From an uncultured delta proteobacterium (lineage in GTDB: Bacteria > Desulfobacterota > Binatia > UBA9968): 64,000 bases of DNA. The DNA lies in assembly GCA_963745035.1 (NCBI GenBank), contig CAVUVW010000014.1, forward strand, positions 160,001-224,000. The letters are read 5' to 3'. Positions 32,694 through 58,307 of the stretch are shown here, in pieces. The notes beneath the pieces are model-generated. The model did no database searches, was not told the origin of the DNA, and saw nothing but the letters and a program-made list of their open reading frames with translations. The position numbers and the translations under genes were made by a program. Numbering within the stretch: position 1 is the first letter of the stretch; every line of letters begins with the position of its first letter.

Positions 32694-32781
32694 ACTTGTA
32701 TGATGGATGTCGGCTCTGAACCGGGAGTGCTCTGCTACAATGCCCGAAACGCGAAAGGCATTGTGCAAGGAGGCACTCAGC

Positions 32782-33915
32782 ATGGGACACAAAGCGTTTA
32801 TACCACAAGAGTACGATGTGTTTGCGGGCTTGGACGTAGATAAAAGAAGCATCTCGGTGACCTTTAGCAACCATCAGCAAGGATTTGTCCGATCGTTGCA
32901 CATGCCGTACAGCGTGGAGCACTTGCTCAAGCACGTACGCAAGCATTATCCCGATCAGAAGGTTGCGTTTGTCTATGAAGCTGGACCGACGGGGTATGGA
33001 TTGTATGATGGGCTTTCGGCCAGGGGTATAACTGCTTGGTGGCGGCACCTTCGATGATCCCTCGAGCTCCCGGGCAAAGAGTCAAAACCAATCGCCTCGA
33101 CAGCCGAGGGTTGTCGGAGAGCTTGCGCGGTGGACAGTTGAAGAGCATTCAGTGCCTTCGCCCATTTATCGAGAGCTTCGCCATCTCACTCAGCTGCGCG
33201 ACACCTTGGTCAGTGAAGTGGCGGGGATGAAGCAGCGGATTCAATCGCTGTTGCTGTTTGAGGGGATCGCTTTCCCAGCGGCTCCCGCTGGGAGCCGCTG
33301 GTCTTTGAAAGTGAAGAGCCAACTGAGGAAACTTCAGTGCTCTAAGAGCATGCGCTTTAAACTCGATCAGTTGCTCGACAACGTGGAGTTTTCTGAGAAG
33401 CAGGTCGTGAAAGTGACCAAAGAGATTCGCAAGCTCTGTCAGAACGATCCTGAACTGGCGCAGTGCATGAAGTATATGATGAGCGTTTGTGGCATCGGCT
33501 GGATTGTGGCCAGTCAGCTCCTGGCTCGTATCGGTGATTGGCGGGAACTTAAAAACGTGCGTCAGCTGGCAGGGTTTTTGGGGCTGGTTCCGAGTGAGGA
33601 CTCTACGGGAGAGAAAACCGATCGAGGCTCGATCACCGCACGGGACATGGCCGCCTGAGGAGTAAACTCATCCAAGCGGCCTGGTCGGCGATTCGCCAAG
33701 ATGGTGAACTTCGGGAGTTTTACAGTTCGGTATGCCGCAGACACCCGCGGCATATGGGTCCGCGAGTCGCCATCGTCGCCGTGGCGCGCAAGCTCAGCAC
33801 CCGGATTGCTGCGGTGTTGATGGAACAACGGCCCTATGTGATGAGACAAAAAGTTCATTCAGCTCCTTTGACCCAAGAGGAGACATCGCCCCAGGGAACG
33901 GCTCGACGACTTTGA
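32782..33915 (+). pseudogene. IS110 transposase with three 1-bp deletions (~33020, ~33151, ~33637); real decay or sequencing error
   Basis: Direct comparison with the intact copy at 52670-53806. Confidence 0.7.
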
Positions 33916-34115
33916 GAACCGGGAGAAAGAAACTCCTGACGGTTCGATCCTTGAGACAGAGATCCCGGGGCTTTGTGCCTTAGAGAGGGGCGCATTTTAA
34001 GTCAGTGTGACGGCCGGGTGCCGTGCCACGCATAGCAGCAAGTCTCTCTTGGCCGGGAAAGAAGAAGGGATAAACTAAGAGCATTCGCGGTGTAGCGACT
34101 TGACATCCACATAGC
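33916..34115 (+). ncRNA. Candidate bridge/seek RNA region of IS110 copy 1
   Basis: Same as 53807-54006 except G33929; junction-matching CATAGCAG-CAAGTCT at 34031-34045. Confidence 0.7.
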
Positions 34116-34171
34116 AGCTAGTCGAAGGACTCCGATAATTTGTTTGGCAACCAGCTAATCGATAACCCACT

Positions 34172-51193: not shown

Positions 51194-51271
51194 GTTTTTC
51201 TCCTTTGGCTGATGTTCTCTCAGTTCTCAATTGACATAGCACTGCGTTGTTGAATATTCATCTTGGATGAA

Positions 51272-51432
51272 GGTTCAAGCTATTCAATGGTTCGACACGC
51301 TCACCATGAGCGGCTCGGATTCCGCTCGTCCTCAGCGAAGTCGAAGGATGGGCTCCGTTCAAAACGTCTTGAACGGTTTGAACGGAGGCATCGCGCCGGT
51401 TGAACGGAGTGACCGAAGGGAACGGTTGAACG
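51272..51432. repeat. Composite GTTCAA element containing an uninterrupted REP hairpin (empty IS110 target homolog)
   Basis: TTCAA-[TGGTTCGACACGCTCACCATGAGCGG...CCGCTCGTCCTCAGCGAAGTCGAAGGA]-TGGGCTCCGTTCAA...TTGAACGGAGTGACCGAAGGGAACGGTTGAACG. Confidence 0.88.
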
Positions 51433-52508: not shown

Positions 52509-52581
52509 GTTCAAAACGTTCAAGCCGTTCAATGGTTCGACACGCTCACCATGAGCGGCTCGGTTTGCCGCTCGTCCTGAG
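52509..52581. repeat. Composite GTTCAA/REP element, left part (split by IS110 copy 2)
   Basis: GTTCAAAACGTTCAAGCCGTTCAATGGTTCGACACGCTCACCATGAGCGG...CCGCTCGTCCTGAG; near-identical to 51283-51335. Confidence 0.88.
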
Positions 52582-52669
52582 ACTTGTATGATGGATGTCG
52601 GCTCTGAACCGGGAGTGCTCTGCTACAATGCCCGAAACGCGAAAGGCATTGTGCAAGGAGGCACTCAGC

Positions 52670-53806
52670 ATGGGACACAAAGCGTTTATACCACAAGAGT
52701 ACGATGTGTTTGCGGGCTTGGACGTAGATAAAAGAAGCATCTCGGTGACCTTTAGCAACCATCAGCAAGGATTTGTCCGATCGTTGCACATGCCGTACAG
52801 CGTGGAGCACTTGCTCAAGCACGTACGCAAGCATTATCCCGATCAGAAGGTTGCGTTTGTCTATGAAGCTGGACCGACGGGGTATGGATTGTATGATGGG
52901 CTTTCGGCCCAGGGGTATAACTGCTTGGTGGCGGCACCTTCGATGATCCCTCGAGCTCCCGGGCAAAGAGTCAAAACCAATCGCCTCGACAGCCGAGGGT
53001 TGTCGGAGAGCTTGCGCGGTGGACAGTTGAAGAGCATTCACGTGCCTTCGCCCATTTATCGAGAGCTTCGCCATCTCACCCAGCTGCGCGACACCTTGGT
53101 CAGTGAAGTGGCGGGGATGAAGCAGCGGATTCAATCGCTGTTGCTGTTTGAGGGGATCGCTTTCCCAGCGGCTCCCGCTGGGAGCCGCTGGTCTTTGAAA
53201 GTGAAGAGCCAACTGAGGAAACTTCAGTGCTCTAAGAGCATGCGCTTTAAACTCGATCAGTTGCTCGACAACGTGGAGTTTTCTGAGAAGCAGGTCGTGA
53301 AAGTGACCAAAGAGATTCGCAAGCTCTGTCAGAACGATCCTGAACTGGCGCAGTGCATGAAGTATATGATGAGCGTTTGTGGCATCGGCTGGATTGTGGC
53401 CAGTCAGCTCCTGGCTCGTATCGGTGATTGGCGGGAACTTAAAAACGTGCGTCAGCTGGCAGGGTTTTTGGGGCTGGTTCCGAGTGAGGACTCTACGGGA
53501 GAGAAAACCGATCGAGGCTCGATCACCCGCACGGGACATGGCCGCCTGAGGAGTAAACTCATCCAAGCGGCCTGGTCGGCGATTCGCCAAGATGGTGAAC
53601 TTCGGGAGTTTTACAGTTCGGTATGCCGCAGACACCCGCGGCATATGGGTCCGCGAGTCGCCATCGTCGCCGTGGCGCGCAAGCTCAGCACCCGGATTGC
53701 TGCGGTGTTGATGGAACAACGGCCCTATGTGATGAGACAAAAAGTTCATTCAGCTCCTTTGACCCAAGAGGAGACATCGCCCCAGGGAACGGCTCGACGA
53801 CTTTGA
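52670..53806 (+). CDS. IS110-family transposase/recombinase (378 aa)
   Basis: AAGGAGG RBS. RuvC-like GLDVDK / YEAGPTG / KTNRLD; C-terminal GIG, GLVPSEDSTG (catalytic Ser region), AIVAVARKL. Confidence 0.96.
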   Translation: MGHKAFIPQEYDVFAGLDVDKRSISVTFSNHQQGFVRSLHMPYSVEHLLKHVRKHYPDQKVAFVYEAGPTGYGLYDGLSAQGYNCLVAAPSMIPRAPGQRVKTNRLDSRGLSESLRGGQLKSIHVPSPIYRELRHLTQLRDTLVSEVAGMKQRIQSLLLFEGIAFPAAPAGSRWSLKVKSQLRKLQCSKSMRFKLDQLLDNVEFSEKQVVKVTKEIRKLCQNDPELAQCMKYMMSVCGIGWIVASQLLARIGDWRELKNVRQLAGFLGLVPSEDSTGEKTDRGSITRTGHGRLRSKLIQAAWSAIRQDGELREFYSSVCRRHPRHMGPRVAIVAVARKLSTRIAAVLMEQRPYVMRQKVHSAPLTQEETSPQGTARRL

Positions 53807-54006
53807 GAACCGGGAGAAACAAACTCCTGACGGTTCGATCCTTGAGACAGAGATCCCGGGGCTTTGTGCCTTAGAGAGGGGCGCATTTTAAGTCAGTGTG
53901 ACGGCCGGGTGCCGTGCCACGCATAGCAGCAAGTCTCTCTTGGCCGGGAAAGAAGAAGGGATAAACTAAGAGCATTCGCGGTGTAGCGACTTGACATCCA
54001 CATAGC
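53807..54006 (+). ncRNA. Candidate bridge/seek RNA region
   Basis: Stem CCGGGA/TCCCGG encloses TCCTGA and TTCGA (target-like). Stem CGGCCGGG/CTTGGCCG encloses CATAGCAG and CAAGTCT (both strands of the circle junction). Confidence 0.75.
53991..53996 (+). promoter_or_regulatory. -35 half (TTGACA) of the circle-junction promoter; -10 half TATGAT at 52587-52592
   Basis: Joining the ends gives TTGACA-TCCACATAGCAGACTTG (17 bp)-TATGAT. Confidence 0.85.
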
Positions 54007-54008
54007 AG

Positions 54009-54104
54009 CGAAGTCGAAGGATTCGCTCCGCTCAAACGTTTTGAACGGCTTGAACGCAGGCGCCGCGCCGGTTGAACGGAGTGACCGAAGGGAACGATTG
54101 AACG
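54009..54104. repeat. Composite GTTCAA/REP element, right part
   Basis: CGAAGTCGAAGGATTCGCTCCGCTCAAACGTTTTGAACGG...TTGAACGGAGTGACCGAAGGGAACGATTGAACG; matches 51336-51432. Confidence 0.88.
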
Positions 54105-54196: not shown

Positions 54197-55225
54197 ATGA
54201 AACGCTTCGCGTGCGTGCTATTATTTTTGCTGGCATCGACTAGCAATCTCCAAGCTCAGACCCCGTTCTATCAAGGCAAAACTATCCGGATCATCGTCGG
54301 CAATCTCGCCGGTGACGCCTACGATCTTTGGGCGCGAATCTTCGCGCAGCACATGGGCAAATACATCCCGGGAAATCCCACCTTCATCGTGCAGAACATG
54401 ACCGGAGCGGGAGGAGTGGTCGCGGCCAATTACGTTTATTCCGTGGCGAAGCCCGATGGGCTGACGCTGGGCACTTTCGGACCGTCGATGTACTTCGACC
54501 AACTGGCCAGGCGTCCCGAAGTGAAGTTCGACTGGGCGAAATTCACCTGGATCGGCACGCCGGAACAGACGGAATTTATCTTGATCATGCGGACCGATAC
54601 GCCGTACCAATCGATCGAGGACGTGCGCAAGGCCGCGCAGCCGCCGAAATGCGGCGCCACCGGCACGAGCACTTCCGGTTACTACATGCCGAAGTTTCTG
54701 GACGATGGGCTGGGGATCAAGTTCAACATCGTCACCGGGTATCCCGGCGGCGGCGAGATCGATCTCGGCATCGAGCGCGGCGAGCTGCAGTGCCGCAATC
54801 TGACGATCAGCACCTACTTCGCGCGCGAGCCTTTTCTAACCTGGCACAAGAAAGGTTTTGTCCGGCCGATCCTGCAAACGGCGAAGAAAAGAGATCCGCT
54901 CGTTTCCGACGTGCCCTCCATCTATGAGCTCATGGACCAACTCAAAACGCCTGAGGCGACGCGGCGAGTAGCGACCGTCTTGCTCGCGCCCGCGGTTTTC
55001 GGCCGGCCCATGGTGGCGACGCCGGGCGTGCCGCCGGACCGCGTGAAAATGCTGCGTGATGCCTATCACCGCTCGCTCAAAGACCCCGCGCTGCTCGAAG
55101 ACTTGAAGAAGCGGCGTTGGTCGGTGGACGCGATCAGCGGCGAGGAGCTGGCGAAGCTCGCGAAAGAAGTGGTGACCCAGCCGCCCGATGTCGTCGAGCG
55201 GATGATGAAACTCTTGGGTAACTAA
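54197..55225 (+). CDS. TctC/Bug-family binding protein
   Basis: FYQGKTIRIIVG, YIPGNP, QNMTGAGG, KPDGLT, GYPGGGE. Confidence 0.9.
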   Translation: MKRFACVLLFLLASTSNLQAQTPFYQGKTIRIIVGNLAGDAYDLWARIFAQHMGKYIPGNPTFIVQNMTGAGGVVAANYVYSVAKPDGLTLGTFGPSMYFDQLARRPEVKFDWAKFTWIGTPEQTEFILIMRTDTPYQSIEDVRKAAQPPKCGATGTSTSGYYMPKFLDDGLGIKFNIVTGYPGGGEIDLGIERGELQCRNLTISTYFAREPFLTWHKKGFVRPILQTAKKRDPLVSDVPSIYELMDQLKTPEATRRVATVLLAPAVFGRPMVATPGVPPDRVKMLRDAYHRSLKDPALLEDLKKRRWSVDAISGEELAKLAKEVVTQPPDVVERMMKLLGN

Positions 55226-55231
55226 GCTGAG

Positions 55232-55272
55232 CGTTCAAGTCGTTCAACCGCTGCTCTCCGTTCCAACCGTTT
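55232..55272. repeat. GTTCAA-family repeat module
   Basis: CGTTCAAGTCGTTCAACCGCTGCTCTCCGTTCCAACCGTT. Confidence 0.75.
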
Positions 55273-55289
55273 CGATAACGAGATTGCCA

Positions 55290-56787: not shown

Positions 56788-56988
56788 CTTCAAGAGTTCA
56801 AATCGTTCAATCCGTTCAACCGCTGCGCTCCGTTCAAAACGTTCAAATCAATGCAGGCGTCATGCAGGAGCCAAAAAGGCACCAGTCCGGAAACGCGTTC
56901 AAAAACGTTTTGCACGGCTTGAACGCAGGTCCTGAGGAAACTCGAAGGACGCCGATTGAACGGAGTGACCGAAGAGAACGGTTGAACG
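56788..56988. repeat. Composite GTTCAA element with both module orientations and a mini target-like hairpin
   Basis: CGTTCAATCCGTTCAACCGCTGCGCTCCGTTCAAAACGTTCAA ... GTCCTGAGGAAACTCGAAGGAC ... TTGAACGGAGTGACCGAAGAGAACGGTTGAACG. Confidence 0.85.
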
Positions 56989-58255: not shown

Positions 58256-58307
58256 CGTTCAAACCGTTCAAGCCGTTCAACCGCTGCGCTCCGTTCAAAA
58301 CGTTTAA
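58256..58307. repeat. GTTCAA-family repeat module
   Basis: CGTTCAAACCGTTCAAGCCGTTCAACCGCTGCGCTCCGTTCAAAACGTTTAA. Confidence 0.85.

Follow-up and report, generated by a model that had tools for sequence, protein, structure and literature searches.

Probable contiguous target guides, one of them overlapping the transposase stop codon, covary with the insertion sites of an IS1111-like element from an uncultured delta proteobacterium

How does an insertion sequence decide where to insert, and which of its own letters carry that decision? The question is raised by a stretch of 64,000 nucleotides (nt) from an uncultured delta proteobacterium of the Binatia (assembly GCA_963745035.1, contig CAVUVW010000014.1, positions 160,001 to 224,000 of the forward strand), hereafter the window, which holds two copies, A and B, of an IS110-family insertion sequence (IS). 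For this family, base pairing between a guide RNA and the target DNA is described as experimentally established in the texts of PMC11187229 and PMC11208160. The original prediction for the locus placed the target-reading letters in a loop right behind the transposase stop codon, closed by a stem CCGGGA/TCCCGG, in which TCCTGA would read the left flank and TTCGA would read TCGAA of the right flank, either across a gap of variable length or on an extruded hairpin. Had such gapped recognition been borne out, it would have added a new mode to RNA-guided targeting; the evidence does not support it. It is highly probable that the element carries at its 3' end a bridge RNA or seekRNA in which two contiguous guides, a right target guide (RTG) and a left target guide (LTG), choose the target. 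The element is an ordinary new example of a known system, whose module had been rightly located and whose guides and mechanism had been wrongly assigned.

Alignment of the copies, together with an unoccupied paralogous site that reads ..CCTCAG/CGAAG.. (here and below a slash marks the junction), fixes the limits of copy B and places the dinucleotide AG at both of its junctions (52580-81 in the left flank, 54007-08 at the right end). Five copies in the source genome, the two window copies included, have the same ends, and all five carry AG at both junctions, the shared core dinucleotide expected of IS110-family elements, which insert site-specifically without duplicating a longer piece of the target. 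An alignment of 20 family proteins served to fetch 80 loci from metagenomes (72-94% identity), which with three loci from genomes (80-93%) and the five own-genome copies gave 88 loci; a protein search of 401 genomes of the phylum returned only relatives at most 37% identical, of no use for RNA covariation. The two ends of the element hardly differ among relatives, and with the right end located in 77 of the 88 loci it was possible to read the flanks. The targets proved diverse, comprising 20 different left 7-mers and 47 different right 10-mers. Both guide anchors were obtained in 75 loci (72-100% transposase identity); two loci with aberrant 3' regions, L078 and L090, were left out of the counts. 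The former is enlarged by about 220 bp to 1,647 bp, the latter is shortened by a deletion to 1,310 bp, and both are without a recognisable target module. Covariation was tested on unique guide-flank pairs against 5000 permutations of guide classes, structures were counted over 53 distinct sequences (46 for the donor module), and chance was estimated from dinucleotide-preserving shuffles of the 201-nt non-coding region.

The right flanks covary with the eight letters at 53798-53805. This RTG, CGACTTTG, overlaps the transposase stop codon and is the reverse complement of the core-adjacent right flank CAAAGTCG, the top strand of which it would pair with. Over 54 unique pairs comprising 26 guide types the mean match is 6.70/8, compared with 4.49 for non-cognate pairs and 4.59 for permutations, and none of the 5000 permutations reaches the observed value; the match is 8/8 in 16 pairs, 7/8 in 21, 6/8 in nine and 5/8 or less in eight. 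Guide and flank change together, as in GTTGCGC with G/CGCAACG, GGCTGGC with G/CCAGCCG, GAGAGCC with G/GCTCTCG, GATAAAC with G/TTTATCG and GATGGCTTCGC with G/CGAAGCCA. The distal half of the guide, CGAC, doubles as Arg-Arg codons and hardly varies, and it is because this half is held fixed by coding that the right flanks share GTCG, which would pair with it; where the CGAC half has changed, the targets carry CTCG, ATCG, AACG or GCCG. The guide is likewise coupled to the C-terminus of the protein, since in the window element the guide letters TTTG and the following A create the stop codon at 53804-06, eight codons earlier than in relatives, most of which (385-386 aa) end at the TGA within CTCCTGA (equivalent to 53828-53830).

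The left flanks covary with a second segment, at 53838-53846. This LTG shares its sense with the left flank GTCC-TGAG, core included, and would pair with the bottom strand, leaving one extra unpaired letter (53842 or 53843) before TGAG. Taking the better of two models, its match over 48 unique pairs and 18 guide types averages 6.56/9 against 5.54 on permutation, again with 0/5000 permutations as high; the model with the bulge reaches 6.33 and the ungapped one 5.23. Examples are GTGC(T)TGAG with the flank ATGCTGAG, TTGG(C)TGAG with ATGGTGAG and GCGAT(T)TGAG with GCGATTGAG. Two segments of an internal loop that match opposite target strands, one on each side of the core, and covary with them are what characterises a bridge RNA or seekRNA.

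The loop itself is suggested by the consensus fold. RNAalifold recovered two helices without prompting from the 53 distinct sequences, an outer stem P1 and a hairpin P2, which together are paired in 98.7% of 954 cells, compared with at most 63% in a control in which the partner was slid; two pairs are compensated, both in P2. The hairpin is paired in 98.1% of cells and shows compensatory changes from CG to UA in three sequences and from AU to GC in one, and a G/A change at 53812 keeps its pairing with U in 50/53. G53829-C53831 are bulged out of it, and its apical loop (53817-23) holds the single difference C53820/G33929 between the window copies. The predicted stem P1 is paired in more than 99% of cells, with three wobble-compatible single changes only. 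The target module would then be the internal loop between P1 (53779-95/53850-62) and P2 (53807-36), its 5' strand bearing the RTG CGACTTTG and its 3' strand the LTG ATCC(T)TGAG. GGTTCGATCC resembles a tRNA T-arm, but the closing pair would fall within the variable guide, and the idea was given up.

Table 1. Features of the element and its surroundings, in window coordinates.
Feature	Position	Strand	Remarks
IS110-family insertion sequence, copy B, 1,427 bp	52582..54008	+	boundaries from copy-versus-copy alignment
Copy A of the same IS, 1,424 bp	32694..34117	+	transposase frame broken
Unoccupied paralogous target TCGTCCTCAG/CGAAGTCGAAGG	51326..51347	+	inside repeated intergenic element
Left target flank of copy B, TCGTCCTGAG	52572..52581	+	core AG included
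Right target flank of copy B, CGAAGTCGAAGG	54009..54020	+	one mismatch to RTG-predicted CAAAGTCG
Subterminal inverted repeat, left arm TGGATGTC	52592..52599	+	read from sequence
Subterminal inverted repeat, right arm GACATCCA	53993..54000	+	read from sequence
TTGACA at right end	53991..53996	+	read from sequence
Transposase gene, 378 aa	52670..53806	+	ATG behind ribosome-binding site AAGGAGG; stop TGA 53804-06
Predicted outer stem P1, 5' strand	53779..53795	+	RNAalifold consensus, inside transposase frame; pairs GCCCC 53779-83/53858-62, GGG 53785-87/53855-57, CTC 53793-95/53850-52
Right target guide (RTG) CGACTTTG	53798..53805	+	covaries with right flank; lies directly 5' of AGAAC
Hairpin P2	53807..53836	+	GAACCGGGAG (53807-16) pairs with CTCCT 53824-28 and GGTTC 53832-36
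Left target guide (LTG) ATCC-T-TGAG	53838..53846	+	covaries with left flank; lies directly 5' of ACAGAG
AC directly 3' of LTG	53847..53848	+	equals first two letters of IS left end
Predicted outer stem P1, 3' strand	53850..53862	+	GAG 53850-52, CCC 53855-57, GGGGC 53858-62; includes TCCCGG of the original prediction
Candidate right donor guide AAGTC	53890..53894	+	complement of core G and ACTT of left end
Candidate donor module inner hairpin	53896..53920	+	GTG 53896-98/CAC 53918-20; ACGG 53901-04/CCGT 53912-15
Candidate left donor guide GCATAGCAG (53921-29), then C53930	53921..53930	+	same sense as right end CACATAGCAG with core

It was the unequal spacing of the two window targets, ..TCCTGAG/CTAG-TCGAA for copy A and ..TCCTGAG/CGAAG-TCGAA for copy B, that had suggested gapped recognition. 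The spacing truly varies, yet a contiguous guide and a host repeat with a variable spacer suffice to account for it. In the own genome 17 unoccupied sites of the form TCCT[GC]AGC-N2-4-GTCGAA were found (L108-L124), compared with none for the reversed control, and their spacers are N2 in three, N3 in 13 and N4 in one. A perfect CAAAGTCG occurs in 0/17 of these empty sites and thus stands only at occupied sites in the own genome, namely L002 and L003. Measured against this ideal flank, two of the copies are perfect, copy B (CGAAGTCG) has one mismatch, and the flanks CAAGTCG and CTAGTCG, the latter that of copy A, are one letter short. The heterogeneity in the distance between core and GTCGAA would therefore reflect a host repeat whose spacer runs from 2 to 4 letters, together with the tolerance of a contiguous guide for one-letter slips in its core-proximal half. 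Across relatives, where the guide has a terminal C, the partner of the core G, the constant 4-mer lies 3 nt from the core in 31/35 pairs in which it could be located; with a terminal G, the case of the window element, it lies 4 nt away in 11/16. One of the empty sites, L120, is identical to the copy B target over these letters.

Several observations count against the two-guide reading or limit its strength, and are best taken together. On the right side there are the eight of 54 pairs with the poorest match; the register of 51 pairs is off by one in eight and by six in one and differs between C- and G-ending guides; and four right guides were read by hand. Moreover, the right flank has behind its guide-matched TCG an A, often AA, that is conserved although it lies outside the reach of the RTG, which leaves it unexplained. 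It stands at +9/+10 in copy B (+8 being G54016; 54016-54018) and at +8/+9 for guides ending in C, and it persists in lineages with otherwise different guide and target (L035-L037, with CCAA and GCAA). The fit of the LTG is weaker than that of the RTG, its ungapped model lies barely above background (5.23 vs 4.79), the bulge model was fitted after inspection of the data, and the lineages L079/L082 and L042 do not fit. The relatives are not independent, and permutation of guide classes controls for kinship only partly. For the RNA, P1, whose coding 5' strand hardly varies, shows no compensatory change, and an Rfam scan of 30000-56000 at E <= 1 gave no match within the element. Contigs from four RNA-library runs (three studies) cover parts of 53003-54021, for example 53753-53902 and 53746-54009; such contigs cannot reveal transcription, strand or ends, and the libraries may contain DNA. 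Single-sequence folds were likewise no more stable than shuffles (z = 0.30, -1.05).

Some of these irregularities could be features of the mechanism. It is conceivable, and we put it forward only tentatively, that a guide lying partly inside the transposase frame, so that retargeting rewrites the last residues and the stop codon, is combined with an elastic guide-target duplex and with a conserved A that is read by something other than a guide. The elastic duplex is suggested by the bulged letter of the LTG, which would be obligatory, and by the slips, seen in 8/51 unique pairs and in 2/5 own-genome copies. If true, it would be a limited, mechanistic version of the spacing tolerance that the original prediction suspected.

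A second way to accommodate the conserved A would be to keep the contiguous guides and to add the invariant TTCG at 53834-37 as a fixed anchor, which, when the base of P2 opens, would read either CGAA in the right flank (+6 to +9) or, where the target is of the repeat type, GTTCG in its left arm. TTCG is kept in 75/75 relatives, the A at +8/+9 is conserved past the RTG pairing even in L035-37, many left flanks read CCGTTCG.. in the same sense as GGTTCG, and covariation cannot test partners that do not vary. However, TTC pairs with GAA in P2 with a compensatory change from CG to UA beside it in three sequences, TCGAA is absent within 14 nt of the core in 18 of the 73 known right flanks, the anchor would overlap the RTG pairing at +6/+7, and a match to the left arm would require two more letters to bulge. 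A protein contact or a property of the host repeat would explain the conserved A equally well, and an anchor of this kind appears unlikely.

The model of the original prediction fares worse, and we regard it as very improbable. The letters it named are all in place (CCGGGA 53810-15, TCCCGG 53854-59, TCCTGA 53825-30, TTCGA 53834-38) and match both window targets; G33929/C53820 is indeed the only non-coding substitution in the alignment of the window copies; and 55/73 right flanks have TCGAA no more than 14 nt from the core, the eight closest copies at 3 to 5 nt. Its placement of a target-binding module beside the transposase stop also holds, the LTG lying inside the loop then proposed. However, both named motifs prove to be structural. 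The stem CCGGGA/TCCCGG is paired in 86.5% of cells with no compensatory change, is broken in 13/53 and 25/53 sequences at two of its six pairs, and is unused in the minimum-energy single-sequence fold; with P1 and P2 recovered in its place, TCCCGG would belong to P1, and CCGGGA, TCCTGA and TTC belong to the compensated P2. TCCTGA, moreover, contains the stop codon of the transposase in most relatives, and like TTCGA would form the 3' strand of P2 without reading the target. The motifs stay fixed while the targets change. TCCTGA is kept in 68/75 loci, yet 45 of the 64 with a known left flank are not in TCCTGAG targets (17 7-mers), and the same 18 right flanks without a nearby TCGAA face the invariant TTCG. 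The last letter of TTCGA, A53838, does vary (A in 47, G in 21, C in six, T in one), but without tracking +6 of the target, and TTCGA would compete with the covarying RTG for the top-strand T-C-G. The covariation check that accompanied the idea points to other positions, those of the RTG and the LTG, and on the prediction's own terms this tells against the named motifs.

Nor are the targets generally hairpins, as an extruded structure would require. Among 68 reconstructed empty sites the mean z is -0.27, with z < -2 in 5/68, and the junction falls in an enclosed unpaired stretch in 20/68. The matches themselves are of a size that chance readily supplies, since 68% of 2000 shuffles contain a perfect 6-bp stem with a loop of 20-60 nt. 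A 5-mer that could pair with the right flank turns up in 80% of 5000 shuffles, or in 24% when only a 38-nt window counts; for a 6-mer that repeats the left flank the figures are 18% and 3%. Both motifs fall jointly in one 38-nt window in only 0.9% of shuffles, a window that was chosen post hoc. The case is a caution: a guide-RNA region and the target it reads can be expected to share matches of 5-6 nt by chance alone, and these may land on structural stems.

Finally, co-inheritance without base pairing, in which each IS lineage inhabits a host that has a repeat family peculiar to it, so that RNA letters and flanks correlate, is hardly credible: the loci are related, many targets are host repeats and the permutations overstate independence, but this predicts correlation and not complementarity, whereas the data show strict reverse-complementarity (RTG) and identity (LTG), position by position over 7-9 letters, anchored at the core and across 26 and 18 guide types, and in the own genome two perfectly RTG-matching flank sequences, present only at occupied sites.

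Beyond the target module lies a putative donor-binding module. The candidate left donor guide is identical to the right end at 9/10 positions, and C53930 matches +1 of the target. The candidate right donor guide is weak: one relative, L008, whose left end reads ACTCG has CGAGT there, and relatives with ACCTG ends do not covary. Because the element ends hardly vary there is little covariation, and the donor guides rest on resemblance. RNAalifold on the 46 sequences gives the inner hairpin without compensatory change and is in conflict over the closing stem, in which AGAGA 53849-53 or AGAGAG 53873-78 could pair with TCTCT 53934-38. The original prediction had taken CAAGT (53930-34) as the complement of ACTTG at the left end; this was rejected, since its first letters follow the target and not the left end, and AGTCTCTC is invariant.

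The letter after CAG of the left donor guide equals target +1 in 44/50 unique pairs, but with only five classes 469/5000 permutations are as high and the agreement is not significant; at +2 it is found in 13/50 only. On the other side, the LTG together with the AC that follows it reads like the product junction, and this AC is nearly invariant among relatives. By analogy with the handshake guides of IS621, as the text of PMC11208158 presents them, the AC is possibly a handshake-like extension, and the two features together would mirror that arrangement (PMC11208158, PMC13626964, as far as their texts go). The left flank is tandemly duplicated in two relatives, over 21 nt in L006:100-161 and 12 nt in L008:1085-1108, with units that end in GAG and start with AC, like the left-end junction; these duplications may be footprints of recombination at GAG/AC.

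The RNA as a whole would be encoded by the last ~30 nt of the transposase gene and about 140 nt of 3' non-coding sequence (roughly 53779-53945), would be co-transcribed with the transposase, and would presumably be processed and bound by it. The non-coding ends measure 202 nt at the 3' side and 88 nt at the 5' side, and a bridge RNA or seekRNA is expected in the longer of the two, oriented like the transposase gene. Circularisation of the excised element would place TTGACA of the right end before TATGAT (52587-92) of the left end, with 17 nt between them; the near-consensus junction promoter predicted to arise in this way would drive both the transposase and the 3' RNA. Junction promoters of this kind are described for the IS110 family in the texts of PMC11187229 and PMC12288879.

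The protein belongs to the IS110 family. The Pfam domains PF01548 (2e-14) and PF02371 (1.5e-21) are present, giving the N-terminal DEDD/RuvC-like and C-terminal Transposase_20 arrangement of IS110-family elements, and the NCBIfam model NF033542 ('IS110 family RNA-guided transposase') scores 218 bits against a cut-off of 140. The nearest solved chains, ISCro4 (9t56, 3e-14) and IS621 (8wt6, 2.7e-11), match over the C-terminal domain only. A very large family surrounds it: when 8,000 candidates were scored, 5,383 proteins reached E <= 1e-30. Most close relatives measure 376-404 aa. In a tblastn search of plasmids all 710 matching records are less than 60% identical, and at most 35% among the 85 listed; the only specific names among the plasmid matches listed are ISSso6 and ISEc45, each about 31% identical.

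Within the family, the seekRNAs of the IS1111 type are described in the text of PMC11187229 as having the top-strand match 5' of the bottom-strand match and a long non-coding region downstream of the transposase gene (tnp), and the text of PMC11208160 gives 7-17 bp for the subterminal inverted repeats of the IS1111 group. Both the long 3' non-coding region and this order of guides are found here, and the subterminal repeat is 8 bp, in ends that are conserved among relatives. The guide order, the location of the RNA and the subterminal repeats suggest that the element would work like an IS1111-type element, the subgroup being named by these traits only. In these three respects it resembles ISEc11, ISPa11 and ISKpn4 as presented in the texts of PMC11187229 and PMC11208160, where targets are likewise often repeats and a promoter forms at the junction of the circle. 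It differs from the descriptions there in the length of its transposase (378 aa, 385-386 aa in relatives, versus 330-350 aa quoted), in a predicted outer stem and an RTG that lie in frame and across the stop codon, the RNAs described there being mapped downstream of tnp, and in a family of RTGs that reaches at most the core G, and in the window element not even that. No statement of a guide overlapping the transposase stop was found in the text of PMC11187229 or PMC11208160, figures and supplements aside.

With IS621, as described in the texts of PMC11208160 and PMC11208158, the element shares the DEDD and Tnp domains and the possible dinucleotide handshake extensions that match partner DNA. 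In IS621, in contrast, the RNA is encoded at the opposite end, the two loop guides come in reversed order, the core is CT as opposed to AG on the transposase strand here, and the handshake letters extend the top-strand guide, those considered here the bottom-strand guide. ISPpu9 of Pseudomonas putida, going by its description in PMC12288879, is an IS110-family element that recombines at an AG found at both ends and inserts in repetitive extragenic palindromes; unlike the present element it belongs to the IS110 group without inverted repeats, has its bridge RNA upstream and has no junction promoter.

Overall, the locus and its relatives provide a well-resolved natural case of a predicted IS1111-style bridge RNA from uncultured soil bacteria, with 26 RTG and 18 LTG types in 75 loci. 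For those who engineer bridge recombinases, it would be worth considering that a guide may overlap the end of the recombinase gene, that a guide half constrained by coding imposes a fixed GTCG on every target, and that natural insertions show one-letter register slips and a bulged guide letter.

Some further observations concern the individual copies and their surroundings. Copy A differs from copy B by three 1-base deletions (at 52908-10, 53041 and 53526-28 in copy B coordinates), two of them within C runs, and is either a decayed copy or a product of assembly errors; apart from these there is one coding substitution besides the non-coding one already mentioned, and its RNA region is intact except for that loop substitution. 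The own-genome copy L002 (contig 10) measures 1,429 bp, 2 bp longer, and its protein match ends at residue 359/378; a frameshift late in the gene, close to where the RNA module begins, is the probable cause. An intergenic repeat rich in GTTCAA/TTGAACG motifs, which could be a REP cluster or a MITE, recurs through this part of the window, at 51270-51432, 52515-52566 with 54034-54104, 55224-55274, 56796-56988 and 58257-58307; copy B is inserted in one of its members, and 51270-51432 is an intact one.

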